The notes under the pieces were generated by a model that saw nothing but the letters and a program-made list of their open reading frames with translations, had not been told where the DNA came from and searched no databases. Shown here one piece after another: positions 2,566 through 52,424 of a stretch of 64,000 bases of DNA. The stretch's first letter is position 1. Each line of letters begins with the position of its first letter. The stretch comes from Polyangiales bacterium. Its GTDB lineage: Bacteria; Myxococcota_A; Polyangia; Polyangiales; Ga0077539. Both the position numbers and the translations under genes were made by a program. The stretch lies in NCBI GenBank assembly GCA_044229975.1, contig JBGARZ010000015.1:32001-96000 (forward strand), given 5' to 3'.

Positions 2566-3177
2566 CTACCGCATCCGCCGCGATCGCTCCCGCTTCACCG
2601 CCGGGTCGCCTTCGTCCTCACGCTCCGTCCGGCGCCGCTCCGCTGTCGTCGTCCGCAACGCCCGCCGCCACGCCCACTGCCGCCACGCGACGTCCACCAC
2701 ACCCAGCGCCAGCACCGTCCCGCCCAGTCGCCACACGAAGCCCCACCCCGGCGCCGCGCCGTCCCACGCGCTCACGCCCACGGCCAACAGCACCGCTCCG
2801 TAGGCCACCGCCATCGTCGCCGTCGCCCACCCGCCCGGCTCTCCCGACGGGCCCTCTGCGTCCGCCGACCGCCACGCGCCGCGCGTCTGCGCCACCGTCA
2901 CCGCCGTCGCCGCCACCACCGCCGCGCCCAACGTCACCCCCAACGGAACCACCACCCGCGCCGCGACGCTCGACGCCGCTCGCCACGGTTCGACGTCCGC
3001 TCTCGCAGTCAGCGTGAGCATCTCGCGCATCGCGCTCCGCAGCGCGGCGCTCAGCGTCGGCAGCGTCGCGAGCACGGCCACCGCCGTCGCTCCGAACACC
3101 GCCACGCCCGACAGCGGCGATCGCCCCTCGCGGAGCGCGCGGTCGAGCTCGCGCGCGGTCGGTGGCTGCGTCGTCAC
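2566..3177 (-). CDS. Short FlhB/EscU-like membrane protein lacking the C-terminal NPTH domain
   Basis: N-terminus 'TQPPTARELDRALREG', hydrophobic core, and 'LRTTTAERRRTEREDEGDPAVK' resemble FlhB/YscU conserved segments. Confidence 0.55.
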   Translation of the reverse strand: MTTQPPTARELDRALREGRSPLSGVAVFGATAVAVLATLPTLSAALRSAMREMLTLTARADVEPWRAASSVAARVVVPLGVTLGAAVVAATAVTVAQTRGAWRSADAEGPSGEPGGWATATMAVAYGAVLLAVGVSAWDGAAPGWGFVWRLGGTVLALGVVDVAWRQWAWRRALRTTTAERRRTEREDEGDPAVKRERSRRMR

Positions 3178-3196: not shown

Positions 3197-3571
3197 TCAC
3201 TCCGCAGGAACGAGCGCGACCTCGAACATCACCGGCCAGAGCTTCCCCGTCAGGAGAAGGCGTCGCGTCGAGGGCTCGTAGGCGATGCCGTTGAGCACCG
3301 CTTCGGGCTCGGTGAGACCCAGCGAGACTCGTGAGAAGGGCAGCACGATCCAGGCGACGACGCGGCCCGTGGCCGGGTCGATTCGCGCGATGCGGTCGCT
3401 GTGCCAGACGTTGGCGAAGACCTCGCCCTCCACCATCTCCAGCTCGTTGAGCTGGTCGATGGGGTTGCCCCGCCAGGTCACCCGGACGCGTCGTCGCTTG
3501 ACGAAGGTGTCGGGGTCGAGGAAGCGCAGGGTGTCCGTCCCGTCGCTGTGGCGGCGTCGAGCACGCGCACC
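3197..3571 (-). pseudogene. Glutaminyl-peptide cyclotransferase 3' remnant
   Basis: Colinear with 17643-17993 (SDGT, LNELE, VLNGIAY, TGKLW); 202-bp internal deletion at 3547/3548; 5' end missing. Confidence 0.85.
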
Positions 3572-3966
3572 AACCAGCGGTCGCACCGACCTCGCGCTCT
3601 CGCCCGACCTCATCGTCCTGCCGTACAACCTCTTCGTCCCGATGATGCTGCACCGCCTGCTCCGGGGAGATCAGCGCCGTCGGCACAGAGGGCCCTTCGA
3701 TGAGGGCGGGCGCAGCTCCCGACGCACGTCGCCGACCACGCGCACTTCGCAACCGGAGCGTCTGGTCCACTCGAGCGGAGTCGGGCCCGCGAGGGTGCCC
3801 CGTTGAACCTCCTGTCGGCCTCGACATCGCCGGTCGCGATCGTCTCGGCGCGGGGATCGCCGCCATGGCGGCGGGGGTGGCGGCGGGGTGGCGGCGGGCC
3901 GGCGACGGGCCATGCAATCGGAGCGTGACGCCCTGGTTCCCCGGTGATTTTCGGCGGTGTGAGGGC

Positions 3967-3998: not shown

Positions 3999-5585
3999 AT
4001 GGCCACCGCCGCCACCAATTCGGGCGAGTACGTGCGCCACGACCCGACGCAGACCACGCTGCACGCGCTCGTCGCAAAGCACCTCAAGACCTTCCTCGCG
4101 TTCGCCGAGGAACGCTCGGGACGCGCGCTGCCGCGGTACGTCGTCGAGGAGTTCCACGGGTACCTCCGCTGCGGGGTGCTGGCCCACGGCTTCGGGAGGG
4201 CGCGATGCAGCGGGTGCGGCCACGACATCCTGGTGGCGTTCTCGTGCAAGCTGCGCGGCGTGTGCCCGTCGTGCGGCGGGAGGCGCATGTGCCAGACCGC
4301 GGCGACGGTGTGCGATCGGGTGCTGCCGAACGTGCCGCTGCGGCAGTGGGTGCTGAGCGTCCCGTACGAGCTGCGGAGGGTGCTTGCGGCCGACGCGGCG
4401 ATGCTGACGCGGACGTCGCGGGTGTTCTTCGAGGAGCTGCGCCGCTGGTACCGCGAGGCGAGCGGCCTCGCGCGGAGCGACGTGCTGAAGGTCGAGGCGG
4501 GGGCGATCACCTTCGTGCATCGGGGCGGCGGTTCGCTCAACGCTCATGTGCACCTTCATGTCATCGCTGCGGACGGCGTCTGGCGCTGTGCGACCGACGG
4601 CTCGACGCCGATCTTCGTCGCGACGCGGCCGCCGACGAAGGGCGACCTGGAGGGGGTTCTCGCGCGGGTGGCGGAGCGGGTGGCGAAGGCGATGGAGCGG
4701 GCGGGCGGCGGTGACGGTGACCGCGCGAGGAACGAAGCGCTCGAAGGGTGTCGGCGAGCGGCCAGTGCACGCGGCGAGTATGGCGTGGTGCGCGACGGAC
4801 GGGTGCCGGAGGCAGGCGAGGCCGCGGGCGAGGCGGTCGATGAGGCGCGCTTCGGACGACGGCCTCCGAAGGCGCAGGTGGGCGCGCTGGAGGGGTTCAA
4901 CCTGCACGCGAGCGTGGTGATCGGCGCGACGGACCACGAAGGGCGCGAGCGGCTGCTGCGCTACGTGGCAAGGCCCACGGTGGCGTCCGGGAGGGTGAGC
5001 GAGCTCGCGGATGGGCGCGTGGCGTGGCGGCTGAAGGTGTCCGGCGGGCGCGGGGAGACCCATCGGATCATGGAGCCGATGGAGTTCATGGCTCGCTTGA
5101 GCGCGCTGGTGCCTCCGCCGAGGTTTCCATTGGTGCGGTACCATGGTGTATTCGCACCGAATTCTCCCTGGCGCGTCGCGGTAGTTCCGCTGCGGTCGGC
5201 GTGCGCGGGGGTGAAGGTGAAAGCATGCGCGACTTCGGCGGCGCGTACACGCGAGGGGACGGACGCGACGGAGACGTCTACGACCGCGACCGCGACCGCG
5301 ACGACGGCCCGCGGCGAAGCGAAGGGCGACGACGGGTGGATGTGGACGCCGGACGGCGCCGCGCCGCCAGCGGCAGTACGCACCTCCGGGAGAATGGACT
5401 GGGCCACGCTGATGCACCGCGTGTGGGGCTGGGACGTGCTCGGGTGCCCGCGGTGTGAAGGGCGGTTGCAGTTCATCGCCGTCATCACGCAGCGCGCCGT
5501 GATCGAGCGGATCCTGACGCATGTCGGGCTCTCCGCCGCGCGGATCGTTGCGGCGCCGGCACGGCACTTCGACGACACGAGCTGA
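3999..5585 (+). CDS. IS91/ISCR-like rolling-circle HUH transposase (Zn-binding + Y2_Tnp domains)
   Basis: Zn domain (YLRCG, C..C, FSCKLRGVCPSC), RQWVLSVP, HUH motif NAHVHLHV, LLRYVARP, RYHGVFAPNS, C-terminal CPRC. Confidence 0.93.
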   Translation: MATAATNSGEYVRHDPTQTTLHALVAKHLKTFLAFAEERSGRALPRYVVEEFHGYLRCGVLAHGFGRARCSGCGHDILVAFSCKLRGVCPSCGGRRMCQTAATVCDRVLPNVPLRQWVLSVPYELRRVLAADAAMLTRTSRVFFEELRRWYREASGLARSDVLKVEAGAITFVHRGGGSLNAHVHLHVIAADGVWRCATDGSTPIFVATRPPTKGDLEGVLARVAERVAKAMERAGGGDGDRARNEALEGCRRAASARGEYGVVRDGRVPEAGEAAGEAVDEARFGRRPPKAQVGALEGFNLHASVVIGATDHEGRERLLRYVARPTVASGRVSELADGRVAWRLKVSGGRGETHRIMEPMEFMARLSALVPPPRFPLVRYHGVFAPNSPWRVAVVPLRSACAGVKVKACATSAARTREGTDATETSTTATATATTARGEAKGDDGWMWTPDGAAPPAAVRTSGRMDWATLMHRVWGWDVLGCPRCEGRLQFIAVITQRAVIERILTHVGLSAARIVAAPARHFDDTS

Positions 5586-5692
5586 CGCGAGGGTGGGCAC
5601 CACGGAAGACAACGGCGACAGCAGGCGAACGGCTGACGACGTGAGGCCGCGGCTTGTCTCGAGGGCACGGAGCGAGGGCCGTTGGATTCGCT

Positions 5693-5872
5693 CATCCAGC
5701 GTCCGATCCCTCCTCTCTGTGACCACAATAGCGTGCAGGTACAGTAGGTTACAGAATCAATATTACACGCAACAGTAAAATGTAGGCGCACGGTCTGCAC
5801 CGCGGCGACGTCTGGTTGGGCCGACCGACGGGGTGCTCCTCAAGCCCACGCGGCATTGGACGCCCTATCCAC
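5693..5872. repeat. 180-bp dispersed direct repeat, copy 1 (putative non-autonomous HUH/oriIS unit)
   Basis: CATCCAGCGTCC...GGACGCCCTATCCAC, identical to 9109-9288, with an AT-rich core. Confidence 0.95.
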
Positions 5873-6145
5873 AAAGATCGTCCAGCGCAGCTTCATGAAT
5901 GCTCCTCTCGAAACGTTTTCGCGGTTTGGGAGACGCTCCAGGTCCAGCTTAACAACAATCCTCTTCTGGCCCGGTGCCGCCCAGCAAGATGTCGAGACGA
6001 CCACTTCGTCCGTTTATTCACGCTCGTCTGCAGGCGGCGAAGGCGCTCGGCCCCACGCTCCCCGGCCACCCGGGTGTCCCCCGCGCGGGGCCGTCTCGGC
6101 GAGCTTCCAGCGCCCTCGGCCGAGGAGCATCAGAGAGGTCCATCC

Positions 6146-6871
6146 CTACCCGACCGTCCGCTCGAGGCGAATTTCGACCTCGCGCTCGACGAACGTCCAC
6201 TCCTCTCGCGAGCGCAACATGCCGACGAGGTCGTCGAAGGCGCCGCGATGCTCCGGGGCCATCTCGAACCACGTGAGAAAGTCGAACGGCTCCCCAAGGT
6301 CCCTTGAATGGTAAAGTCTTCGGGCAATGCGAGGCAGGTAGGCCATGCTGTCGGCGATGTGGTGGGAACGTGCCTCGAAGATGGCGCGACGCTCGTCCTG
6401 CGGGAGCGCCCACCAAGCAGGGGACTTGCGTATCGGAATGAGCACCGCGAGCGTTGCCTCCGGCCTCGCGAGGGGTGGACTCTGGGAGTCCAGGCGCGCC
6501 TTCTCGCTTCGCTCGACGTACCTGGCATGGCTCGTGACTCCGCGAAGAGCCCACGAGTCATTGCCCTGAGCCGGCGTCTCCGCGAGGCCAGCGAGCACAG
6601 CCACCCGGCTCACCGCGGACAGCGCATCCCCGCGAATCGCAGACATACCTGTCACGCGCCACGGCCCCTCCCTGCCTCCTGTGAAGGTCGCTTGGACTAC
6701 TCCTGGTCGGGTCATTCTCTTCGCCTCTTGAGCTCGGGGTGATGGTGGCGACTGGGGAGGTTCCGCCCCAGCTCCCTTGGCGTTCACGTGGCAGCCGGCC
6801 TCGAGGGCGGCGAGGGTGCAGCTCGCGCCCGCGAGCATGAACGTGCGTCTCGTTGTTCGATGTGCCTTCAT
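6146..6871 (-). CDS. cld: Chlorite dismutase family protein (short, clade-II-like)
   Basis: IPIRKSPAWW...ERRAIFE...HH...LP.IARRLYHSRDLGEPFDFLTWFE...EEW.FVERE. Confidence 0.85.
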   Translation of the reverse strand: MKAHRTTRRTFMLAGASCTLAALEAGCHVNAKGAGAEPPQSPPSPRAQEAKRMTRPGVVQATFTGGREGPWRVTGMSAIRGDALSAVSRVAVLAGLAETPAQGNDSWALRGVTSHARYVERSEKARLDSQSPPLARPEATLAVLIPIRKSPAWWALPQDERRAIFEARSHHIADSMAYLPRIARRLYHSRDLGEPFDFLTWFEMAPEHRGAFDDLVGMLRSREEWTFVEREVEIRLERTVG

Positions 6872-6884
6872 TTTCCGCGCCTCG

Positions 6885-7100
6885 TTAAGGCAACACGCAT
6901 TTTCCGCTGATACACTTCGCTCCCCTTGGGCAGGCCTTTCCGCATCCGCCGCAGTTTCCAGGGTCCGTCATTTTGTCGATGCACTTACCCCCGCTAGAAG
7001 CAAACGAACAGAAACTTTTCGGTGCATCACACGTCTGGCACCGATAGGCCCCGTCGGGTCGCTTGAAGCACTTTTGGGGCGACTCGCACGACATACCGCA
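6885..7100 (-). pseudogene. 3' fragment of a Cys-rich myxobacterial repeat protein
   Basis: SCGMSC...DPGNCGGCGKAC...C; the 5' end is cut at the 54-bp repeat. Confidence 0.7.
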
Positions 7101-7209
7101 AGAGCGTAAGTAAATCAAGGCACTTTTCAGGGGTGTCGGCTGGGCTCGCGGGGATGGCGTTTCGCGACCTTCCGGGGTCGCGGCGGGCGCGCCGAGGCGG
7201 TCTCGGCCC

Positions 7210-7224
7210 TGGCACGGAGGTTGC
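7210..7224 (+). promoter_or_regulatory. Sigma54-consensus motif inside the IS91-like end
   Basis: TGGCAC-GGAGG-TTGC. Confidence 0.4.
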
Positions 7225-7284
7225 CGAACCCCACCAAGCGCCATGCCGGCGCAGCGCGGCCTTCGGGCGCCCCTTGCGCACGTT

Positions 7285-8159
7285 CTACTCGGCTGCCTCG
7301 ACGCTACCGGCACCTCGACGGAGGACTCGACTTGCCCAGTACGGAGGCCCTCGAGCGGGCGTGCGCTTCGGCACGTCGGTGGGCTCGCCAATGCCCCGCA
7401 GGTACCGAGCGACGCTGGTCGGATCGGTGACGAGCGCGAGCAGCTTCATCCTTCCGCTGCAGCACGGGCAGGTCAAAACGTCGAACCCAAAGGTCCGTTT
7501 AAGAAGCTCCGCCCACGGACGATAGCCGCCTCGGCGCGGTCTCTCGGGCACGTCCACCGTGGGTATTGGAGCAACCGCCGGCTTCGGCGCCAGACGAGCC
7601 CGAACCTTACTCGCCGACGCGAGCACCCCCGCATACCGAACGGTGTGCAAGCGCGGCGCGGGTACCGACGCCGCGAGACGGCTGAGCAGCGAGAGTGGAT
7701 CCATGTCCACCGCCACCGTGCCGTCCGAAAAAGGCTTCTTCAGCGTGATCCGGACGAGGCCGTCAGGCCCTCGGGTCACGCGTTCCTGCGCGACCGCGGG
7801 GCGCAACACGTACTTCAGCAGTGCCTCCCGGCCAGCTTCGTCGTGCCCACCGGCCCGCGTCGCCGCGTGGAGGGTGAAACCATCGAGCGCGACACACAGC
7901 GGGCGCTCGAACACCATGGGTCGGCACTCGAAGAGCAGCGCGCCTCGGCGCCACTCCGGACCGGCAGGCGGCGTAGTGCCCGAGACCGCCGACGCCGCGA
8001 GCACGGCCCTCCCGTCGCCCTCATCCTCGGAATCGCTGTCCTCGACGAGAAGGCCCCGACGACGAAGCCACTTCACCATCCGGTCGCGCGTGCGCTCCAG
8101 CACCGCCCCCACGTCCCGCGTCGACAGGTGCCGAGCGGCACGGAAGTCGAGCTCGTCGC
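7285..8159 (-). pseudogene. C-terminal half of a second IS91-like transposase
   Basis: GFTLHA, LLKYVLRP, RYAGVLA, WAELLKRTFG.DVL.CPCC; the Zn domain and HUH motif are absent. Confidence 0.9.
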
Positions 8160-8213
8160 TCCCCGCGAGCCCAGCCGACACCCCTGAAAAGTGCCTTGAT
8201 TTACTTACGCTCT

Positions 8214-9111
8214 CGGACTGGGTAAGACCGAGGCAGTAGCCGTAGAGGGTCTCGAGCTCGGCGTCGTCGTTCTTCGGGGTCTGCTCGCGGAGCTCGCGGA
8301 GGAGCACGAGCGCGGAGGGGAGCTCGGCGCGACGGACGAGGCCGCGCGCTTTGAGCCGCGCGAGGACCGGATCGCGGGCCGCCTCGCCCTTGGTCGAAGG
8401 GGGCGGAGGCTCGGGCGTGCTCGCGGGCGCCTTCTGCGCGTTCATGATCCGCGGCTCGCTCATCGGCGGCTCTTTGCGCGGATCGTAGGGCTCCGCGCGC
8501 TTCTGCACACCGGAGATGGGGATCTCGACCGACGGAGGCCGGAGCGGGCTCGGGGCGCGGAACTGCATCGACGCGCGGCGGAGCGCCTCCGTCTCGGGGG
8601 TGACCGTGGCGACACGAGCGCGCCGGAGGAGCAGGAGGGCGTACACGATTCGCGCATCGACCGCCGACACGCGCGAGAGCTCGAACGCGCTGAGCGGCTT
8701 CGGCTCCGACAAGAGCTTCGCGACGCGCGCCTCGGCGTCGGAAAGCTCGAGGTCGGCGAGCTGCTCGAGGAGGCCGAAACCCGATGCACCTTGCACGTAT
8801 CCCGCGAGCACGATCGGCCGATCGCCGACGCGATCGAGGGCTTCTCGTGCGCGGGGGGGCAAGAACACCTCGCGGAGACCACGGAGCACGGCGCGCCCCA
8901 CCGACACCGGCACGTCGTCGCGCCCATAGGTGGGGATGAGGTCGAGGCGGTCGTAGAAGCCGAACCGGGTGCTGCCCGGAAGGTGGAAGAGAGACGCGAG
9001 CTTGCGCGTGAGCTGCTCGCCGACCGCGATCGCGACGAGGTCGGGGGACACCATGCCCCGCTCCTTCACGATGTCCCCGAAGAGCACCTTCGGCGTACGG
9101 GTGGAGGCCAT
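8214..9111 (-). pseudogene. Internal fragment of a myxobacterial DUF4388/DnaJ-type protein
   Basis: 'LFGDIVKERG..EQLTRKLASLFHLP..F.FY..DL..YG' followed by a Pro-rich linker and a TPR-like helix; cut at both ends by repeats. Confidence 0.55.
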
Positions 9112-9288
9112 CCAGCGTCCGATCCCTCCTCTCTGTGACCACAATAGCGTGCAGGTACAGTAGGTTACAGAATCAATATTACACGCAACAGTAAAATGTA
9201 GGCGCACGGTCTGCACCGCGGCGACGTCTGGTTGGGCCGACCGACGGGGTGCTCCTCAAGCCCACGCGGCATTGGACGCCCTATCCAC
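9109..9288. repeat. 180-bp dispersed direct repeat, copy 2
   Basis: Identical to 5693-5872. Confidence 0.95.
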
Positions 9289-9351
9289 CGGTCTCCTGGG
9301 GGTGCGCCTGCGCTGTCGACGCCTACGGGTCGCGGTTCTCCCCAGGCAGCG

Positions 9352-10362
9352 TCACTGCCGCATGCAGCGGAACCCGACGCCGGTCGAGTACGACACCTCG
9401 AGGCCCTCGCGGTACCAGGCGCGCACGTCGTTGGCGCTGGTGCTGCGCCAGTTGCCTCCACGGATGATCCGGATCGTGCTGCCCCCCGTGCTCACGGGGT
9501 CGTCCACGTACGTGGTCATATTGCCCGTATAGGTGAAATACCGGTCCGAGGTGAGCTCGGCGATGCCCCCGCCCATATCGAACAACCCACGAGCCCCTGC
9601 GGGGAACATGCGCACCGGGCAGGTGTTCGGCTGGATGGTGCCGCCGCCACTCCAGCACAGTTGAGCGCCGGGCGCCTCTGGCCCCCACGGGTACATCCGT
9701 CCGTCGACCCCGCGCGCCGCGTACTCCCACTGCGCTTCGGTGGGGAGGCTCGCGCCACCGCGCCACACGCAGTACGCGATCGCCTGCTCCGCCGTGACGC
9801 AGTTGATCGGGTGATCGTCGCGCCCGGAGACGCCCCAATTGCAGGCCGGGAGCGTCGCCGTCGGCGTGCACCCCATCGCGGTCGGACACTCGCGATAAGC
9901 GCGCACGGTCACCTCGGTGACGTCCAGGCAGAACGCCCTCAAGCGAACGCCATGCACCGGCAGGGCGAGCGGCTCCGTCCCCGTCGCATCCCCCATCAGG
10001 AACTGACCTGCGGGGATGAGCGCCATGCCCGCAGGACAGCCCGTCCCCGTGTCGGTTGTCCCGACGTCGGTTGTCCCGATGTCGGTTGTCCCGATGTCGG
10101 TTGTCCCGATGTCGGTTGTCCCGATGTCGGTTGAGCCGATGTCGGTTGAGCCGATGTCGGTTGTCCCGATGTCGGTTGAGCCGGAGTCCGCGGGAGGGGC
10201 GTCGATCGCCAGGGGGCGGTCGTCGGGGGCATCCGTCGCGACGTCCGATGGGCTGCCTGCGTCCGGCGAGCGCGAGTAGTACCTCCAATCGTCGCGGACA
10301 CAGGCGAGCGCGCCCACGACGGTCCAGAGCGCGACGAGTCGACCTACCCGGCGGAGAGGCAT
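9352..10362 (-). CDS. FGE-sulfatase/SUMF1 domain lipoprotein
   Basis: Lipobox LAC; FCLDVTEVT, HPINCV, LPTEAQWEYAARG, RGGNW, GFRC. Confidence 0.9.
   Translation of the reverse strand: MPLRRVGRLVALWTVVGALACVRDDWRYYSRSPDAGSPSDVATDAPDDRPLAIDAPPADSGSTDIGTTDIGSTDIGSTDIGTTDIGTTDIGTTDIGTTDVGTTDTGTGCPAGMALIPAGQFLMGDATGTEPLALPVHGVRLRAFCLDVTEVTVRAYRECPTAMGCTPTATLPACNWGVSGRDDHPINCVTAEQAIAYCVWRGGASLPTEAQWEYAARGVDGRMYPWGPEAPGAQLCWSGGGTIQPNTCPVRMFPAGARGLFDMGGGIAELTSDRYFTYTGNMTTYVDDPVSTGGSTIRIIRGGNWRSTSANDVRAWYREGLEVSYSTGVGFRCMRQ
10051..10185. repeat. Nine tandem 15-bp coding repeats (encoding TDIG[T/S])
   Basis: GTCGGTTG(TC/AG)CCGAT x9. Confidence 0.95.
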
Positions 10363-10453
10363 CGGCAGACCGTCCCCCGCAGCGGTCGGCGCTGTCAACG
10401 CCGATGGGCATGGCGGGCCGCTGCGCAGAGACCCCGCGGCGCCGCCCTGGACG

Positions 10454-10939
10454 TCAGTCGCGCGTCACCCCGGCATCGCACACCGCGCGGACGACGCAGC
10501 GCCATCGCAGACCAGCCTCCGCCGCGCCGCAGTAGCAGTCCCAGTCGAGGAGCCTCCGGTTGCCCGGGCTGCCGCAGTTCCACCAATTCTCGCAGTAGAC
10601 GCCTGGCGTGTCGCACTGGCCCTGGTCGCCCGACGGGTCGAACTGGAAGCAGGTGTGGAGGTCACCCTCGCAGTCGAAGAAGCGCATCAACTCGGCGCAC
10701 GAGCGCACGCGCCCACCGACCTCGCTCGCCATCACGGGACGATCGAAGCCGACATCCGGGGCGGGAACATCCGATGCGACCGTGGCATCCATCGCGTCGA
10801 TGTCGTTCACATCGGACACGTCGGACGCATCGATCACGGCTGCATCCGCGCTCGCGTCCGTCGGGCCGCGCGGGTCTTCGTCGCACCCCATGGCGAGCGC
10901 CGCGATCAGCGCTCCGAGTCCGTGAACACGCTCCACCAT
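10454..10939 (-). CDS. Small Cys-rich lipoprotein
   Basis: Lipobox AMGC, Asp/Ala linker, Cys-rich C-terminus. Confidence 0.6.
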   Translation of the reverse strand: MVERVHGLGALIAALAMGCDEDPRGPTDASADAAVIDASDVSDVNDIDAMDATVASDVPAPDVGFDRPVMASEVGGRVRSCAELMRFFDCEGDLHTCFQFDPSGDQGQCDTPGVYCENWWNCGSPGNRRLLDWDCYCGAAEAGLRWRCVVRAVCDAGVTRD

Positions 10940-11183
10940 CTGATCACGAGTGGTACATCCAAAGCGGCCGCCAGGCGCGCGACGGGGAGTCACCGGCGGT
11001 AGCGGTCGACGAGGTCGCCACGGCCATGGCGATCGCGGTCGCATCATACCGGAGCCGCTGTACGGTCAACCTGGCGGGCCGTGGTGGCCGGGGACCGACG
11101 AAGCGGTGGAGGCCTCGTTTTTACCGAGAAGTGTATGCACCGAAGGGTCCGTGTCCCCTTCGGAGTCCAGAGACCTCTCTGCG

Positions 11184-11397
11184 GTTCGACGCGATGGTCG
11201 GCAGTCCCGTGAGCCAGACCCGGAGCGCGAGCGACGGCCACTGCCGACGCGACGCCCGCGTTGCCAGATTGCTTTCCGGCACGTGGAGATCGCTCTTCGA
11301 AAGCGTCGTCGGAGTTCTCGACTGGCAACGCGAGCGTCGCGTCCCGTGGCTCGCGCTCCGGGTCTGGCTCAGGGGACTGCCGACCATCGCGTCGAAC
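11184..11397. repeat. 214-bp intergenic foldback (REP/MITE-like) element
   Basis: 49-bp arms 11184-11232 / 11349-11397 with one mismatch, plus a further inner stem. Confidence 0.85.
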
Positions 11398-11465
11398 TGG
11401 AGATGGCATCGCCGTCGACTGGCCCGACGTTGACCCATCCACGGTCGCTCGGCGAAGGTTCCGCC

Positions 11466-13319
11466 ATGAGCACCCGACCGACCGCCGCATCGTGGACCCT
11501 GCTCGTGGTCGCCCTCGCCGCGTCGGCCTGCTCGTCGGACAACCTGGTCGCGGGCGTCGACGGCGGCGGCTCCGTCGATGTCCCCATCATCACCAATGAC
11601 CTCGGCGCAACCATAGATGCGCCCGTCGATGTGTCCACGATCGACGCTCCTGCGGTCGACGTGCCCTTCCGATGCGCCTCCGAGGCCGACTGCTCGGGCA
11701 ACACCACGGGCTCCGTCTGCGATGTGGCCACTGGCCGCTGCGTTGCCTGCACCGCCGCGCGCGACGTGTGCCCGACCGGCCAGCGCTGCGACGACGCGAG
11801 CCACGCGTGCGTCGCCGGGTGCCGCGACGACTCCTCGTGCGCCACGACCACGGGAGCCGACAGCTCGGTCGGCGCTCGCCGCCGCTGCGACCTCAACTCG
11901 CGCGCCTGCGTCGACTGCCTCGTCAACGACGACTGTCCCGCCGGGACCCTCTGCGTCGGCAACCTCTGCGTCGCCGGCTGCGCCGGTGGGAGCCGCTGTC
12001 CCACGGGCCAGAGCTGCTGCGCCGGCGCGTGCGTCGACACGCTCGCCAACGTGGCGCACTGCGGCCGATGTGATGCGCGGTGCAGCGTTCCCAACGGGGG
12101 CGCCTCGTGCCTCAACGGCGCATGCTCGGTGGCCACCTGCGCGGCCCCGTACGGTGACTGCGACCGCGACGCCGCCAACGGGTGCGAGACCAACACGCTC
12201 ACCGCCGTCGCCCACTGCGGCGCGTGCGGCGCCGCCTGCCCCACGCGCGCCAACGCCAGCGCCACCTGCGCGGGCGCGACCTGCGGGTACACCTGCAACG
12301 CGGGCTTCGCCGACTGCGACGGCGACGCGACCAACGGCTGCGAGGTCGACACCCGCACCGACACCGCCCACTGCGGAACCTGCACGACGATGTGCTCGCT
12401 CCCGCGTGCAACAGCGGCGTGCGTGGCAGGCGGGTGCCAGGTCACGGCCTGCACCGCGGGCTACGCGGACTGCGACGGCGCAGCGTCCAACGGCTGCGAG
12501 AGCGACACGCGGGTCGACGTCTCCCATTGCGGCGGGTGCGGTCGGGCCTGCGCCGTCCGACCGAACGCGGCGCCCGCCTGCGTAGGCTCCGCCTGCGTGA
12601 CGACGTGCATCGCGGGGTACTCCGACTGCAACACCGTCGAGGCCGACGGGTGCGAGCGCAACCTGCGCAACGACCCGGCCAACTGCGGCGCGTGCGGGCG
12701 CGCGTGCGGAGCGGGCGGTGCGTGCTGCGAGGCGACCTGCGCGACGACCGCCAGCGACCCGGCCAACTGCGGCGCGTGCGGGCACGCATGCGCAGCGAAC
12801 GAGGCCTGCGAGTCGGGTCGCTGCCAGGCCGCGCTCGGGTGCGCGTCGGGGCCGAGGCGGGGGTTCACGGACGTCGCTGCGTTTCCGCGCATCGCGGCGT
12901 GTGGGGCGCGGGTGAGCTTCGCGGCGGCGACGACGACGGCGGCCACGGTGTGCGCGCCGGGCTGGCACTTCTGCAACCCCGCCGACCTCAACGCGACGAC
13001 GGGGACAGCGCCGGACTTCGTCCCGGCCGACGCGATGGGGTGGGTGCTCTACACCGACCCGACGACGACGGTGTGGGGCGACTACTCGGTCGCCGCGTGC
13101 GGCGGGGTGACGCCCGCGGTGGCGAACCTCGCGGGCACTGGTGCGTGCACGGCTTCGGGGGTCTACCCCGAGGGCTGGCGGCTCGCGACGTCGACGTCGT
13201 ACTGGCCGTGGTCGCACCGCAGCAGCAGCGGGTGCGTCGAGCACGCGGTGCACATGTGCATCACCGACGGCGGGACGATCCCGGCGACGACGGCGTACGT
13301 GCTCTGCTGCGCGCCCTGA
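11466..13319 (+). CDS. Cys-rich repeat lipoprotein
   Basis: Lipobox ASAC; many DC(D)G...NGCE and HCGxCGxAC repeats. Confidence 0.85.
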   Translation: MSTRPTAASWTLLVVALAASACSSDNLVAGVDGGGSVDVPIITNDLGATIDAPVDVSTIDAPAVDVPFRCASEADCSGNTTGSVCDVATGRCVACTAARDVCPTGQRCDDASHACVAGCRDDSSCATTTGADSSVGARRRCDLNSRACVDCLVNDDCPAGTLCVGNLCVAGCAGGSRCPTGQSCCAGACVDTLANVAHCGRCDARCSVPNGGASCLNGACSVATCAAPYGDCDRDAANGCETNTLTAVAHCGACGAACPTRANASATCAGATCGYTCNAGFADCDGDATNGCEVDTRTDTAHCGTCTTMCSLPRATAACVAGGCQVTACTAGYADCDGAASNGCESDTRVDVSHCGGCGRACAVRPNAAPACVGSACVTTCIAGYSDCNTVEADGCERNLRNDPANCGACGRACGAGGACCEATCATTASDPANCGACGHACAANEACESGRCQAALGCASGPRRGFTDVAAFPRIAACGARVSFAAATTTAATVCAPGWHFCNPADLNATTGTAPDFVPADAMGWVLYTDPTTTVWGDYSVAACGGVTPAVANLAGTGACTASGVYPEGWRLATSTSYWPWSHRSSSGCVEHAVHMCITDGGTIPATTAYVLCCAP

Positions 13320-13364
13320 TTCTCTCCCGACGGCTCCGCGCGGCAATGCAGCGTATCGAGACCT

Positions 13365-14276
13365 TCAGCGTGACGCTTCGTTCACGAGCCAATCGCGGAA
13401 GGCGACCAGCTTCGGAAGGGCGGCGCGCTCGGGCCGATAGACGATGTAATAGGCAAGCACCGAGGAGAACTCGACGTCGGGGAAGAGCCGCACCAGCCGG
13501 CCCGCCGCCAGGTCGTCCCGCGCCATGATGCTGCGGGCCAACGCCACGCCCAGCCCGTCGATCGCCGCCTGGAGCACCCCGGCGGAGTTGTTGATCCGTA
13601 GGCCTCGCTTCGTTTTGACGTCGCCCATCCCGGCCTTCTCCAACCACGCGTCCCACGTCGCGAAGCCGGAGTGCGCGTCGACCGACAGGTCGTGGATGAG
13701 GCTCGGTCCGGCAAGGTCCGCCGGCCTGCGAAATCGGCGGTTTCGCTGGAAGACGGCCGGAGAACAGACGGGATAGATCTCCTCGTCCATGAGCTTCTCG
13801 GCAGTCAGGCCCGGCCACGTCCCGGCGCCGTAGCGCACCCCGATGTCGATGCCGCGTGCGGCGAAGTCGAGCACCTCCATGGAGGCGTCGAGCCTCACGT
13901 CCGTGTCGGGCCACCGCGCTTGAAACCGCTCGATGCGTGGAAGTAGCCACTTGGCCGCGAAGGCCGGGCTGACGGTCACGGTCAACACGCCGTTGGCCGA
14001 CCCCTCCTTGAGTCGCGCAAAGCCGAGGCTCAACCGGTCGAACCCCGCGCGGATGTCAGGCAGGGCGCGCTGAGCCGCCTCGGTCGGCACAAGCCGCGTC
14101 CGGCCGCTCGTACTTCGATGAAACAGCGCCGTGCCGAGCGTCTCCTCCAGGCTTCGTACGAGCTGCCCGACGGCCGCGGGCGTCACGTGGAGCTCGGACG
14201 CGGCGGCCGAGAAGCTCTCGTGCCGAGCGCTCGCCTCGAAGGCGCGCAGCGCGTTCAGATGATCGGGCGCCCTCAA
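13365..14276 (-). CDS. LysR-family regulator, GcvA-like
   Basis: LNALRAFEASARHESFSAAASELHVTPAAVGQ HTH; WLLPRIERF; GLGVALAR. Confidence 0.92.
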   Translation of the reverse strand: MRAPDHLNALRAFEASARHESFSAAASELHVTPAAVGQLVRSLEETLGTALFHRSTSGRTRLVPTEAAQRALPDIRAGFDRLSLGFARLKEGSANGVLTVTVSPAFAAKWLLPRIERFQARWPDTDVRLDASMEVLDFAARGIDIGVRYGAGTWPGLTAEKLMDEEIYPVCSPAVFQRNRRFRRPADLAGPSLIHDLSVDAHSGFATWDAWLEKAGMGDVKTKRGLRINNSAGVLQAAIDGLGVALARSIMARDDLAAGRLVRLFPDVEFSSVLAYYIVYRPERAALPKLVAFRDWLVNEASR

Positions 14277-14489
14277 GGACGGCCAAGACTTTCTTTGCCA
14301 GCAACCAAGATCTTATGCTTTGCGATGTCCCGCCTTCGCATCGATATTGGAGTCTCACGGATCGAGGAAAACTCCCGACGTCGGCGCGACACGGCCCCTT
14401 GGGTCACACGAACCCAGGCCTGCCGTCAAGAGCGCTTGTCGGGACAGTTTTTCTTTCACACAACGCCTCGTGTCCCAAGGAGAACCCCA

Positions 14490-14771
14490 ATGGTCTATTT
14501 GCAAATCACCCTACAGATCGCCCCCGCCAACCGACCCGCGGCTGCGGATGTCTACCGGCGCTATCGGTCGCCCTTTCTCGACACGGTCGCCGGGGCGAAG
14601 TCGAAGGTCCTGCTCGTCCGCGAGGACGACGTCCAGGTGCTGCACGGCTTCGATACGGCAGAACAGGCGAACGCCTACCTGAAGAGCGCTCTCTTCACGG
14701 CCGACGTCGTCGGCGCGCTCAAGCCGCTGCTCGCCGCCGCGCCGGACGTCCGGGTCTATCAAGCGGCCTGA
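14490..14771 (+). CDS. Small conserved protein divergent from the LysR gene
   Basis: RBS AAGGAG; 93 aa MVYLQITL...EDDVQVLHGFD. Confidence 0.75.
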   Translation: MVYLQITLQIAPANRPAAADVYRRYRSPFLDTVAGAKSKVLLVREDDVQVLHGFDTAEQANAYLKSALFTADVVGALKPLLAAAPDVRVYQAA

Positions 14772-14802
14772 CGCCCTCCCGCGCAGGCGACTACGCCGAC
14801 GC

Positions 14803-15399
14803 TCACCCCAGCACGCGCACCCTGAACCCTCCGAGCAGGGTCACCACCTTCGTCAGCGGCAGCCCGATCACCGCCGTGAAGTCGTCTCCGCGTATCCCCT
14901 CGAAGAGCGCGATGCCCAGCGACTCCACCCGGTACGAGCCCGCGCAGTCCAGCGGCGCGTCCCTCGCCACGTAGTCCGCGATCTCCTCGTCCGTCAGCGC
15001 CCGCATCGTCAGCGTGTGCGTGTCGATCATCGTCTCGGTGCGACCGCTCGCCCGGTGATGCACCGCCACCGCCGTGTGCTGCCGGTGCTCACGGCCCGCC
15101 AGCCGCCTCAGCTGAGCCCTCGCCCGCTCCGCTGTATGCGGCTTGCCCAGCGCCTCGCCGTCGACCTCGCCCATCTGGTCGGCGCCGATGATCACCGCGT
15201 CTGGAAACGCCTCGCCCAGACCCACAGCCTTCCCGATGGCCAGCACTCGGGCTCGCTCGGGGATGGGCAGCGCGCCGAGTCCGTCCTTCGCGGCCTCCTC
15301 GTCGAAGGGCGTCGCCATACACTGCACGGTAATCCCGAGCCGCTCGATGAGCTCCCGGCGGTACCGCGACGTCGATGCGAGGATCACCGTCGTCGTCAT
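14803..15399 (-). CDS. maf: Maf family nucleoside triphosphate pyrophosphatase
   Basis: ILASTSRYRREL, FDE, IGADQ, LGKP, PLDCAGSY, IGLP. Confidence 0.92.
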   Translation of the reverse strand: MTTTVILASTSRYRRELIERLGITVQCMATPFDEEAAKDGLGALPIPERARVLAIGKAVGLGEAFPDAVIIGADQMGEVDGEALGKPHTAERARAQLRRLAGREHRQHTAVAVHHRASGRTETMIDTHTLTMRALTDEEIADYVARDAPLDCAGSYRVESLGIALFEGIRGDDFTAVIGLPLTKVVTLLGGFRVRVLG

Positions 15400-16002
15400 G
15401 CGAGTGGATCGTCCACTTCGACCTCCGCCGCCCGCTGCCGCCGCGCCGCCAGCCGAGACTGCGCGTACTTCACCAGCGGTTCGACGTACGCGTCGAACGG
15501 CGGACACTCCACCCCGCGCGCCATGAGCAGGCCGCGCGCCCCCGTGTCGGCGTAGCGCGCCCTCGTGGCGAGGCGATCGACGAAGGCCCGCGGGCTGCGG
15601 GTGAGCCGCTCCAACCCCGGCGTGTTGAGCAGCGCCCGTGTGAGGTTCACCGGAACCATCCCCCGCGGAACCCTCCGCCCCGCCACCTGCGCGATGCGCT
15701 CGAAGGCCGCACCCGTCGACGGTGGCGTCGGGTCGACCACATGGAAGGTTCGCCCCACCGCTTCGCGTGCCGCCCCGAGCGCAACCCCCGCCCGCGCCAC
15801 GTGATCGACCGGAACCACATGCAGCGGCAGGTCACCGCCCGCCGGCAATGGGAGCTGCATGTCCACCGGCGAGCTCAGCATCAACACGATGAAGAGGTAC
15901 GGCCCGTCGAAGAGGTCGATCTCGCCGGTCTGCGAGTCGCCCACGATCATCGACGCGCGCAGCACCGTCACCGGCAGCGTGGTCATCGCGCGTCGCAGCA
16001 GC
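15396..16002 (-). pseudogene. C-terminal fragment of an SDR/NAD-dependent epimerase
   Basis: LPVTVLRASMIVGDS, VVPVDHVA; the N-terminal Rossmann fold is missing, cut at repeat copy 3. Confidence 0.8.
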
Positions 16003-16175
16003 CATCCAGCGTCCGATCCCTCCTCTCTGTGACCACAATAGCGTGCAGGTACAGTAGGTTACAGAATCAATATTACACGCAATAGTAAAATGTAGGCGCA
16101 CGGTCTGCACCGCGGCGACGTCTGGTTGGGCCGACCGACGGGGTGCTCCTCAAGCCCACGCGGCATTGGACGCCC

Positions 16176-17187
16176 GGCTCATGTTCCCCTCGGGGTGATG
16201 GGCCTGAGCAACTGGGCGAGGAAGCCCAGGAAGTCGTGCCGGAAGTTGTGCATGCCTTGGTAGAAGGCCAGGTAGAGGTCGAGGTTCCACTTGCTCACGC
16301 CGCGGAAGGGTCGGAGGTAGTTCCGCAGGCCGAGCCAGAAGCCCTCGATGGTGTTGGAGTGCACCTCTCGGATGCCGTCCCCATCATCGTCGCGCGCCCA
16401 CTCCTTGCGCTTGTGGTTGACCGAGAAGCGCGTTCGACCTCGGTCGTCTAGGTCGTCGTAGGCATGCCACTCATCGGTGTGGACCTCGGTGCCGGGGTCC
16501 GTCACGCGCAGGACCACGGGCTCGATCGCCTTCACCGTGCTGCGATACGTCTGCCGCAGGAACACTTGACCGGACTCCCGGCCAATCACTCCGAGAATGG
16601 GCGGGCGATCGTTGTCGAAAGTGCCATGTCCATTGAAGTGATGGCCGCGCCGACGCGGTGGGTCATCGGGATCGGGATGGGGGCGGCCCTTCTCCCCGGC
16701 GTTCTGGTACATCTCGTCGGCTTCCACGAGACGATCGGGCAGGGCGCAGGGGGGAAAAGCGTTCAAGCGCCATGCCCTGAACGCGGTGTCGCAGTCGGAG
16801 CAGGTTGCGTCGACCGACACCAAGCTCCTGCGACAGATGCAGCGTAGTAACGCCCTGACAGAAGCCGCGCAGGATCATGACCAATCGCGGGGACGAGAAG
16901 CGCACTCCCTGAAGCGGCGTGCCGGTGAACACGTTGAAGACCTTGCCGCAGGCGCGACAGCGGTAGTCCACCACGGGCTCACGGTGACGATCATGGGGCG
17001 CTTGATCGTCGGGTAGCTCGTGTCCCTCGGGGCAGCGGAGGCCCTCCGGGTGGATCGCCTCCAGCAGCAGCCGGTAGCACGCGCCCTCGTCCAGCAGGTC
17101 GTCGATCGGGAACAGCATCGTGCCTGATCCGTACCTCCAACCGGAGCTCCCCGGAAGGGGGCGTTCACCCCGAGGGGAACATGAGCC
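16176..17187 (-). mobile_element. IS1595-family (ISXO2-like) insertion sequence, 1012 bp
   Basis: Perfect 23-bp TIRs GGCTCATGTTCCCCTCGGGGTGA; 8-bp TSD GGACGCCC (16168-16175 / 17188-17195). Confidence 0.93.
16179..17118 (-). CDS. IS1595 transposase split over two frames
   Basis: Zn-ribbon ORF from ATG 17118; DDE ORF with VEADEMY, HTDEW, VNH, HSNTIEGFW; frame change at TTTTCCCCCC near 16755. Confidence 0.85.
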
Positions 17188-17202
17188 GGACGCCCTATCC
17201 AC

Positions 17203-17623
17203 CACCGTCCCACGCGCTCACGCCCACGGCCAACATCACTGCCCCGTAGGCCAATGCCATCGCCGCCGTCGCCCACGGGCTCGGCTCCCCCGACGGACCC
17301 TCCGCGTCTGACGACCGCCACGCGCCGCGCGTCTGCGCCACCGTCACCGCCGTCGCCGCCACCACCGCCGCGCCCAGGGTCACCCCCAACGGAACCACCA
17401 CCCGCGCCGCGACGCTCGCCGTCGCCCGCCACGGGTCGACGTCCCCGCGCGCAGCCTGCGTGAGCATCTCGCGCATCGCGCTTCGTAGCGCCGCGCCCAA
17501 GGCCGGCAGCGTCGCGAGCACGGCCACCGTCGTCGCGCCGAACACCGCCACGCCCGACACGGGCGATCGCCCATCGCGGAGCGCGCGGTCGAGCTCACGC
17601 GCGGTCGGCGGCTGCGTCGTCAC
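17203..17623 (-). pseudogene. 3'-truncated paralog of the FlhB-like gene at 2566-3177
   Basis: Colinear with 2761-3177 and cut at the end of repeat copy 3. Confidence 0.85.
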
Positions 17624-17642: not shown

Positions 17643-18443
17643 TCACTCTGCCGGAACGAGCGCCACCTCGAACATCACCGGCCAGAGCTTGCCCGTCAGG
17701 AGAAGTCGCCGCGTCGAGGGCTCGTAGGCGATGCCGTTGAGCACCGCCTCGGGTTCGGTGAGGCCGAGCGAGAGGCGCGAGAAGGGCACCGTGATCCACG
17801 CGACGACGTGGCCGGTGGCCGGATCGATGCGCGCGATGCGGTCGCTGTGCCAGACGTTGGCGAAGACCTCGCCCTCCACCATCTCCAGCTCGTTGAGCTG
17901 GTCGATGGGGTTGCCCCGCCAGGTCACCCGAACGCGTCGTCGCTCGACGAAGGTGTCGGGGTCGAAGAAGCGCAGGGTGTCGGTTCCGTCGCTCATGATG
18001 AGGAGGTGGCCGTCGTGCGTGAGGCCCCAGCCTTCGCCCTCGTAGCCATGAGTGGTCACGGGCTCTAGCGTCGCGGCGTCGTACACGAAGCAGGTCTGCG
18101 TCTGGTAGGTGATCTGGAAGACGCGGTTGCCGAGGACGGTGAGCCCTTCGGCGAAGTGTTCGTCGGACACCTCGCGGCGTCGCGTGATGGCGCCGGTGGT
18201 GGCGTCGAGCACGCGCACCGACGACCGGCCGCGCAGGCCGGTGCTCTCGTAGAGGGCACCCGCGTGGAAGGTGAGCCCCTGGAGGAACGCCTCGCGATCG
18301 TGGGGAATGCGCGCGATGACGCGGGCCGTGTAGCGCGTCGGCGGCGTGGTCGGGGCGGTCGGAGCCGCGGGCGCGACGGGCGAGGGGAGGGCGGGGAAGC
18401 AGCCCGGGAGCATGACGAGGGCGACGACGGACAGGCGCACCAT
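17643..18443 (-). CDS. Glutaminyl-peptide cyclotransferase (type I) lipoprotein
   Basis: PHD..AFLQGL, LYESTG, FAEGL, GEGWGLT, SDGT, LNELE, VLNGIAY. Confidence 0.92.
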   Translation of the reverse strand: MVRLSVVALVMLPGCFPALPSPVAPAAPTAPTTPPTRYTARVIARIPHDREAFLQGLTFHAGALYESTGLRGRSSVRVLDATTGAITRRREVSDEHFAEGLTVLGNRVFQITYQTQTCFVYDAATLEPVTTHGYEGEGWGLTHDGHLLIMSDGTDTLRFFDPDTFVERRRVRVTWRGNPIDQLNELEMVEGEVFANVWHSDRIARIDPATGHVVAWITVPFSRLSLGLTEPEAVLNGIAYEPSTRRLLLTGKLWPVMFEVALVPAE

Positions 18444-18488
18444 TGCCCCGATAACACGTTGTCCGGAGGCGCGGTGTACGCTCGGCCG

Positions 18489-18857
18489 ATGAGCTCGCTG
18501 GCACCCTGCACCTCCTGCTCGCGCCACGTTCGCACCGACGAGAGCGCCTGCCCCTTCTGCCGCGCACCACGGGTCGCGCGCGCCGAGTCCGCGCCGTGGT
18601 TTCCGCGCGCTTCGCGGGCCGTGTTGTTCACCGCGGGCGCGTCGCTCGCGCTGGCCGCCGGGGCCGATGCGTTCATCTCGACGGCGCACGCCGACACGCA
18701 TGAGGCGGTGTCGATGGTTCCGCAGTACGGCGCGCCGTCGGACTACCTGCCGCCGCCGGAGCCGCCCTCGTCCCCGGTGACGCCGACGGACGCGGGGACT
18801 CCTCCACCGGTGGATGCCGGACGGGAGAGCCCGCGTCCGCCGCGCGGTCGGCACTAG
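18489..18857 (+). CDS. Small myxobacterial CxxC/CPFC protein with a YGAP motif
   Basis: PCTSCSRHVR..ESACPFC; PQYGAP. Confidence 0.65.
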   Translation: MSSLAPCTSCSRHVRTDESACPFCRAPRVARAESAPWFPRASRAVLFTAGASLALAAGADAFISTAHADTHEAVSMVPQYGAPSDYLPPPEPPSSPVTPTDAGTPPPVDAGRESPRPPRGRH

Positions 18858-19473: not shown

Positions 19474-19776
19474 GCGGGACGACGGTCGTTGTACCCGCTC
19501 GTGGCCGGGGTTGGTCGCGTCCCGCGCCTGCACCACCGGGCAAGCGAAAGCAGGCGCCCCTTCGGGGCTTTCGGAAGCAATCGGCCACCGCGATCGGGCT
19601 CAGTGTCCCGTCCCACGCCGCGGCGTCAGCGCGGCGCGCGAAGGCTACGTCAACAATCCCCCGTTGATTGGGGGGCTGACCGTTGCGCGCCGCGCTGACG
19701 CCGCGGCGTGGGCTCCAACTGGGAGCCCGACCTCACTGTTGAGCGCTTCTGGAAGCCCCGGAGGGGCGCCTGCTTT

Positions 19777-21701: not shown

Positions 21702-21776
21702 CGCTTGCCCGGTGGTGCAGGCGCGGGACGCGACCACACCCGGTCCGAAGTGGTCGCACGATCACCCGATGACCTG

Positions 21777-51786: not shown

Positions 51787-51948
51787 GTCACCGGGGCAGC
51801 GTGGCCATGGCCTCGCGCAGGGCCCGGTAGCGCTCGTGCATCCACGGAGGGGTCGCCGCGGGCGGCCAGCACGACGAGGTCTTCGGCGGCCTCGCGACGC
51901 CTGCGCGCCGGAGGTCGCCCGCGAGCCGCGCCCGCCCGGCTGTACTAG

Positions 51949-52182
51949 TACCTCGTCGCAGGAGTTCTGACGGGTTGAAGAAGCCGCAAGGGCGCAAGGG
52001 TCGCAAGGGAGGACGACTCAGGCGACTCACCCTCATCTCATCTTGTCCTTGCGACCCTTGCGCCCTTGCGCAAGGGTCGCAAGGGAGGACGACTCAGGCG
52101 ACTCACCCTCATCTCATCTTGTCCTTGCGACCCTTGCGCCCTTGCGGCTTCTTCAACCCGTCAGAACTCCTGCGACGAGGTA
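51949..52182. mobile_element. MITE with 60-bp perfect TIRs, flanked by CTAG on both sides
   Basis: TACCTCGTCGCAGGAGTTCTGACGGG... and its reverse complement; internal 76-bp tandem duplication. Confidence 0.85.
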
Positions 52183-52424
52183 CTAGGCGCGCAGCACCAT
52201 CACCGTCGGCACCGCGGCCGCGAGCAACCCAAGCGTGAACCTGGCAGTGTGCGGAGCCCCCGCCCCTGCGCCCTGAGCGCGGGGGTCAGGGCGCGCGGCA
52301 GCGGGGAAGGGGGCCCAGACCGCCGACACACGGCAGAGAAGCCGCACGCCGCGGGTCCGTGGGGGCTCTTGACGGCGTCGGCGTCGCGCGCGAAACGAGG
52401 ATAGTCTGGGAGGGGAAGTCGGGG

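Follow-up and report, generated by a model that had tools for sequence, protein, structure and literature searches.

The stretch analysed here (the window: 64,000 nucleotides of contig JBGARZ010000015.1, positions 32,001 to 96,000) belongs to a metagenome-assembled draft genome of a Polyangiales bacterium (GCA_044229975.1; 93% complete, 3% contamination) and contains a transposase gene followed by an array of gene blocks separated by copies of a short unit. The transposase, of the IS91/ISCR-like HUH type (3999-5585, plus strand), is encoded in an open frame of 528 amino acids, and the first copy of the 180-bp unit starts about 110 bp behind it. Unit 1 (5693-5872) and unit 2 (9109-9288) are identical over 180 bp; unit 3 (16003-17202) matches over 173 bp from 16003 with one single-nucleotide polymorphism (SNP) and is then interrupted by an IS1595-family element with an 8-bp target duplication (16176-17187, minus strand), after which its right end resumes, to 17202. 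All three units are on the plus strand and separate blocks of 3236 and 6714 bp. This layout agrees with an initial annotation of the same DNA, made from the sequence alone, which gave 3.2- and 6.7-kb blocks between co-oriented units and suggested a search for further copies. Sequence and profile searches of the whole 10-Mb genome found just these three; copies are present in related genomes, in which their flanks were tabulated. The array is real, recurs across congeners and other Polyangiales, and is rule-bound.

Pfam domains were sought in 20 open reading frames (ORFs) within 1-24 kb of the window. The transposase contains the domains Zn_Tnp_IS91 (PF14319, E 4e-16) and Y2_Tnp (PF04986, E 4e-25), as expected from the initial annotation, and H185, H187 and Y322 are invariant among 18 homologs. 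The best NCBIfam match is ISCR clade Ia (NF052416), with 275.5 bits against a cut-off of 925, and the IS91 model (NF033538) scores 90.9 bits against a cut-off of 125; because the protein falls under both curated cut-offs, it apparently represents a separate subgroup within the IS91/ISCR family. No helicase domain was detected with Pfam in the 528 amino acids, which hold only the two IS91 domains and no Rep-helicase fusion of the Helitron kind. A search against solved structures gave no significant match. The upstream regions of related transposases have GC-rich repeats in common, in which no sharp end (terIS or a palindrome) was located; the stop-like site that was identified, site A, lies downstream of the gene.

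Site A (5679-5700, plus strand), a predicted internal stop site, is a conserved motif that follows the transposase at a distance of 110 bp. The left edge of unit 1 (5692^5693) falls within it. The motif is present behind 25 of the 27 related transposase ends with at least 45% identity, 88-168 bp downstream of the gene, and in none of the 38 ends at 32-44% identity (the distant set comprised 40 ends, and the two with site A were 62 and 70% identical, outside this range). Each unit spans a fixed point within site A to the right end of the element (site B), and the upstream half of site A is kept only by transposase-adjacent (first) units. The left edge is identical in four unit families, the transposases of which are 48-100% identical. 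Site A probably explains this fixed edge. Site B, which we take to be oriIS on the basis of its position and its likeness to known IS91/ISCR ends, was recognized in 14 of the 25 ends having site A, 109-191 bp beyond that motif, the others being truncated, interrupted or missed by the pattern. Because its position and edge recur behind related transposases, the unit is apparently the transposase-free origin-side end of the neighbouring IS91/ISCR-like element, so that the connection to this transposase proposed initially holds. Among the distant transposases, 14 ends had at least 2 kb of downstream sequence and short contigs limit the survey; repeats were found in two of these, with no co-oriented copy of an origin-side end apparent in either. 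At one locus with a distant transposase (L272:9139-9236 and 14182-14279), an exact repeat of at least 98 bp starts about 350 bp behind the transposase and recurs twice downstream; its edge is unlike that of the 180-bp unit.

The initial annotation had taken CAT and CCAC for junction flanks and had proposed a GTGG/CCAC target word, a TGG^AT nick and a 173-nt non-autonomous unit. In relatives, the units begin with CAT regardless of the flank, and at their other end most carry CCGC in place of CCAC. Within the host genome, CAT is missing at the junction from the paralog of the cut SDR gene, and CCAC is missing there from the intact copy of the flhB-like gene. It follows that both words are part of the unit, that the unit measures 180 rather than 173 nt, and that the proposed target word and nick do not stand. 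The unit itself gave no match to a sigma-70-type outward promoter. Five units, belonging to three unit types, have IS1595-type ends at an identical position within site B (window 16176-17187; L038, L105, L063; G000:C24:12468), and the element in unit 3 has a 99.8% identical copy on contig C36 (G000:C36:290289-291300) that adjoins B-like sequence. The IS1595-type element appears to be a second element that targets the origin end of this system.

The genes at the unit edges are cut. Block 1 is a mosaic holding a fragment of a second ISCR-type element. It consists of a segment with a chlorite-dismutase-like gene (5873-7101; ORF 6146-6871, minus strand), the 3' half of another ISCR-type element with its origin end (7102-8159, minus strand; Y2_Tnp 90-180; ISCR_clade_Ia, E 8e-30), a 54-bp inverted copy of the end of that element (8160-8213, plus strand) facing the cut gene, and a PatA_N/DUF4388-like gene fragment cut at both ends (8214-9108, minus strand; Atlas first hits 0.91, PF14332). 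The nested element (7102-8213) is thus cut within its transposase and capped by the inverted copy of its own end. The PatA_N/DUF4388-like fragment has no direct Pfam or NCBIfam match, and no longer homologs were found at E 1e-10, which is weak evidence. The cut at the unit edge, noted initially at 9111, is at 9108, given that the CAT is part of the unit. Block 2 (9289-16002) encodes an FGE-sulfatase-like protein, a Stig1-like repeat protein, a LysR regulator, Maf and the C-terminal half of an SDR protein. Two of its segments resemble sequences elsewhere in the host genome (14806-16003 and contig C23, 87%; 12752-13319 and contig C1, 89%). The cut in the SDR gene lies at 16002, the C23 copy of about 365 amino acids extending past the junction, and the flhB-like gene on the other side of unit 3 (17203-17623, minus strand) lacks its 3' part, as judged against an intact 91% identical copy (2566-3177, minus strand; Pfam Bac_export_2). 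Both cuts had been placed correctly from the sequence alone. No pairing of the three left with the three right flanks restores the SDR or the flhB-like gene; the missing halves were expected next to other unit copies, and with only three copies in the genome, blastn searches with the flanks returned paralogs only.

Similar arrays are found in relatives. The unit was matched, with the same two edges, in five of eight congeners and weakly in five of the other 52 genomes; no match was obtained in the remaining three congeners (64-92% complete). A unit profile gave 44 hits in 24 fetched loci and the window, some of which are one copy seen twice. In one congener, seven units stand in a row behind the remnant of a transposase, with 1.4-6.7 kb of cargo between them; these units differ from each other at 10-42 positions, unit 1 differs from all others by 28-38, and the units look like mosaics, alike in their right halves but not in their left halves. 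In other Polyangiales records, transposases that are 60-66% identical have their own ends of 119-139 bp, which recur downstream. Recent arrays outside the window likewise hold near-identical first-unit copies (three at 100% in locus L073, two at 100% in L069 and three at 96-98% in L067). Searches with such ends yielded 41 matches in one genome for one end, and 28 and 4 matches in two of five genomes for another. The host genome itself contains 27 hits to a second family, F2, one of which is a diverged unit to the left of the transposase (3686-3819, plus strand; nhmmer E 3.7e-22); the F2 transposase is encoded elsewhere on contig C14. In locus L073 (12918-13120), a unit of one family abuts a truncated, opposed unit of another family; therefore, different families share islands. 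A multicopy segment of about 680 bp, 75-98% conserved across congeners, lies near units in several genomes (L024:11924-12600; G000:C15:183367-184046).

The junctions of these units follow simple rules. When the non-first units of the four families were pooled, excluding partial hidden Markov model (HMM) hits without a clear edge, the left flank was C in 75 of 84 cases (background 0.36) and GC in 52 of 84 (background 0.14), and the right flank was a pyrimidine in 74 of 85 (background 0.50), where the F2 right edge is the model end and may be one base off. To the right of site B, only position +1 is biased, with no consensus at +2 to +6. Neighboring units up to 30 kb apart are co-oriented in 51 of 66 pairs, and 18 of the 27 F2 hits have a neighbor within 10 kb, compared with 1.3 expected. 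None of the 13 testable units, that is, those with a homolog reaching at least one junction, is a bare simple insertion, because no homolog continues into the opposite flank (unit 3 of the window; five units of the long array; L024, L027, L029, L033 and L039; and two F2 units on contig C10). This result extends the earlier observation that the two flanks of a copy do not come from one gene. No duplicated flanks around units were seen by eye; a bare insertion is lacking, and the sole empty site is too diverged to place an exact edge. At this site, an intergenic position is occupied by one F2 unit and, to its left, 1.9 kb of cargo; the two sides of the position are adjacent in the six relatives matching both (a gap of 25-54 bp in four; in the other two, the alignment failed to place the gap). 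Because the unit and its cargo occupy a site that is empty in relatives, this case supports the block order [cargo + unit], as proposed in the initial annotation. The two ends of the cargo are unequal: at the left-edge junction, homologs continue with a pyrimidine in six of eight cases, and at the right-edge junction, GC precedes in homologs in only two of seven, as expected if two different reactions made them.

The cargo pieces in the window match host genes at 87-91%, and the piece from Maf to SDR is 75-85% identical to its counterparts in the eight congeners. Because the units are near-identical while the cargo is only 87-91% similar to host genes, a close relative that has not been sampled is the likely source of the cargo. 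The flhB gene and a feoB-like gene are immediate neighbors in five relatives; here, the latter starts at 21777, so that the region between the two genes is a variable insert. Both intact transposase loci on contig C14 lie between 91%-identical duplicated host segments (2759-3547/17205-17993 in the window, 91.4% identical, and G000:C14:204243-204711/206663-207127), and the right copy begins at or near site B. These duplications possibly reflect one-ended joining of related DNA and subsequent homologous recombination. The left segment of the window extends into a glutamine cyclotransferase remnant with an internal deletion (3197-3602, minus strand; Pfam Glu_cyclase_2 137-249 only) that gives two separate matches to the right-hand copy, where an intact glutamine cyclotransferase gene (within ORF 17643-18854) follows the flhB-like gene. 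On the transposase side of the remnant, a fragment of a gene (3578-3684, plus strand), with 90% identity to a core gene of contig C10, ends at the F2 unit.

It is quite likely that the transposase actively builds the array, and we lean, by no means strongly, toward a process in which it moves the origin end together with the DNA on its left, in a hop followed by read-through. The enzyme would nick the bottom strand at site B, and rolling-circle displacement would go leftward and stop at an intact site A, releasing a mini-unit. The mini-unit would join a target at GC^Y, probably in the DNA of a related bacterium. Having lost the upstream half of site A, it could not stop there in the next round, so that displacement would read through kilobases of neighboring DNA up to a loosely chosen site. 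The resulting [cargo + unit] strand would land at a resident site B, which offers the same cut pattern and would bind the enzyme, or, occasionally, at an ordinary chromosomal site, and repeated rounds would give co-oriented rows. The nick, the stop at site A, the hop, the forced read-through and the landing at site B are steps that we infer from sequence comparison. In favor of this scheme are the left edge common to the four families, the distribution of site A, the flank rule, the clustering and co-orientation of units, the lack of bare insertions in the 13 tests, the [cargo + unit] block in the empty site, the unequal cargo ends and a run X1 contig whose match stops at the unit edge. A variant, in which the cargo is a circle opened at one point, was rejected for block 2, the left start of which is unlike a continuation of the SDR gene. 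The available portions of the literature on related elements support the hop and the read-through: IS91 forms bottom-strand single-stranded circles and undergoes one-ended transposition (PMC13181058), and mini-elements consisting of the origin end have been demonstrated for IS801 (PMC3189936).

Several observations weigh against this scheme of hop and read-through, and alternatives have to be considered. Its main weakness is that the hop predicts bare insertions left in the donor, so that the target would have to be transient or the insertions purged. No gradient leading away from the transposase is evident in the seven-unit array, and polar aging of units was looked for there and not seen. 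Neighboring units are opposed in 15 of 66 pairs, and F2 taken alone is co-oriented in only 8 of 13. A hairpin at site A that is visible in the window is not significant across the related set (z from -2.7 to +1.4), so that a conserved hairpin is not supported. The flanks were counted over distinct sequences, which come from related genomes and are not fully independent, the homolog comparisons use 75-99% identical stand-ins rather than the true donors, and most genomic IS801 fragments have been attributed to recombination (PMC3189936, available portion). The lack of bare insertions would be accounted for by one-step capture, which we regard as a tentative and considerably less probable scenario: the transposase would open site B of the first unit, the unit would be copied up to site A, and an incoming foreign single strand would be joined between the old copy and the new one, with no free hop, so that the array would grow beside the transposase, as a CRISPR array does at its leader. 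The distance of 0-1 SNP between the window units compared with the 9-13% divergence of the cargo from the host copies, the near-identical first-unit copies in the L073, L069 and L067 arrays, and the restriction of whole site A to first units all fit such a reaction. This scenario is at odds with the lone [cargo + unit] block at an otherwise empty chromosomal site and with the lack of polarity in the seven-unit array, and no such reaction is described in the examined portions of the IS91/ISCR literature. Equally tentatively, site A might be a dedicated attachment site, with the transposase, site A and the unit forming an acquisition machine that, in one step, cuts incoming single strands of DNA of related bacteria and joins them as the unit is duplicated, and older blocks excised and exchanged between origin ends; if so, foreign DNA would be built into ordered arrays by a third chemistry, in addition to those of integron integrases and of Cas1-Cas2, one that takes up kilobase pieces with almost no sequence requirement.

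The units could also have accumulated passively, by single mini-unit insertions, as with mini-IS801, followed by homologous recombination, adjacent deletions and island transfer, without any special capture. The preference for recombination in the case of IS801 fragments (PMC3189936, again in part), the mosaic appearance of the long-array units and the 91% host duplications that flank the C14 transposase loci, which suggest that homologous recombination took part, are in line with this possibility. However, passive build-up would leave GC^Y at both ends of the cargo, whereas GC precedes the right-edge junction so rarely, and it predicts many surviving simple insertions, of which the 13 tests revealed none, so that we consider it improbable. 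A further possibility, that identical 180-bp repeats joined unrelated contigs of this draft genome during assembly, has to be taken into account because, among the assembled contigs from five sequencing runs that we compared, none spans a unit-cargo junction of the window by at least 31 bases on both sides. A contig from run X5 spans 5614-5848 across site A, that is, the transposase-side junction of unit 1, with three differences, and one from X4 covers the unit alone. A 638-nt contig from X1 matches 5873-5943 exactly, and the match stops precisely at the unit edge; four X1 contigs cover most of 5873-7130 (with a gap at 5944-5996) without differences. The nested ISCR-type element (7102-8159) is covered in all five runs, other sequence following beyond 8159 in X1, X4 and X5; its 1058-bp part is nearly identical in these runs, with depth above the surroundings. 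The RNA runs X13-X18 contain under a fifth of the words. False joins are nevertheless highly implausible: with only three copies in the genome, neither the cut SDR gene nor the cut flhB-like gene is restored however the six flanks are permuted, arrays in other assemblies consist of units that differ by 10-42 bases, and misassembly would not yield the flank rule.

The closest described systems are miniature IS801 derivatives and the two-oriIS capture by ISCR elements, here compared on the basis of the available portions of the respective sources (for the anatomy of ISCR elements, see PMC13393415). Origin-end fragments of IS801 transpose and end at tetranucleotides, with no other signal (PMC3189936); IS91 shows one-ended transposition at 1-14%, tetranucleotide targets and bottom-strand circles (PMC13181058). 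The array shares with mini-IS801, IS91 and IS1294 the HUH family, non-autonomous origin-end fragments with a fixed left edge (229, 360 and 679 nt in IS801) and, probably, the carriage of neighboring DNA by read-through; those elements cause no target duplication, and around the units no duplicated flanks were apparent by eye. Unlike the IS801 minis, which have tetranucleotide ends and were trapped as single insertions, the units here have an edge within a conserved motif behind the transposase gene, follow the (G)C^Y flank rule, were not found as bare insertions and form rows between cut foreign genes. A tetranucleotide target beside oriIS, which characterizes IS91 sensu stricto (IS91, IS801, IS1294; PMC13181058), was not observed. 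Capture of DNA between two successive oriIS has been reported for ISCR28 (PMC12772301, itself citing an ISCR28 paper), and the array resembles such sandwiches in this respect and in its best NCBIfam match. However, the sandwiches consist of a remnant element around a resistance gene, whereas here a defined unit of 120-190 bp is present up to seven times and the cargo is arbitrary, often consisting of broken genes of close relatives.

The layout, with an enzyme gene, a unique enzyme-adjacent site and co-oriented repeats separating cargo, is indeed integron-like, as initially suggested, but the likeness ends there: no tyrosine recombinase (IntI) was found among the 20 scanned ORFs, the cargo of 1.4-6.7 kb is cut mid-gene instead of consisting of whole single-gene cassettes, no attC-like structure was noted (no attC model was run), and the unit has no sigma-70-type promoter match. 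Helitrons use rolling-circle HUH chemistry and capture gene fragments by read-through. The array probably shares these features with them and differs in the lack of a helicase domain, in being bacterial and in having captures delimited by repeated origin ends. Unlike MITEs (miniature transposable elements with inverted repeats), the units are not scattered as simple insertions but are clustered and mostly co-oriented. In its probable mode of action the array resembles ISCR capture, and in its layout an integron, but it is neither an integron nor a Helitron; we regard it as a new version of a capture process already known. Neither rows of fixed-edge origin units nor an internal stop motif are described in the accessible literature; older subscription work on ISCR elements was outside this scope, so that absence from print is not established.

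The window harbors several additional repeats. Two 60-bp inverted arms (93%) lie between block 2 genes (11178-11403). A group II intron with a reverse transcriptase (19483-21743; reverse transcriptase 20237-21607) has several near-identical copies in the genome, and its domain at 19858-20028 was the only Rfam match. A short palindromic REP-like repeat (19659-19732) forms many clusters with a spacing of about 53 bp on contigs C26, C27, C28, C32, C33 and others, and two identical 76-bp direct copies are found within 64-bp perfect inverted arms (51945-52186).

How ISCR elements pick up neighboring genes is a long-standing question that has been argued mostly from clinical mosaics. The system described here supplies testable rules: the unit is defined and 180 bp long, a conserved candidate for the stop site loses its upstream half, the target rule covers two bases, and recent captures stand in rows. 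If read-through is forced once half of site A is lost, the capture of genes would be built into the element rather than being a rare termination error. For Myxococcota with their large genomes, the array may be a route to sample the DNA of relatives.

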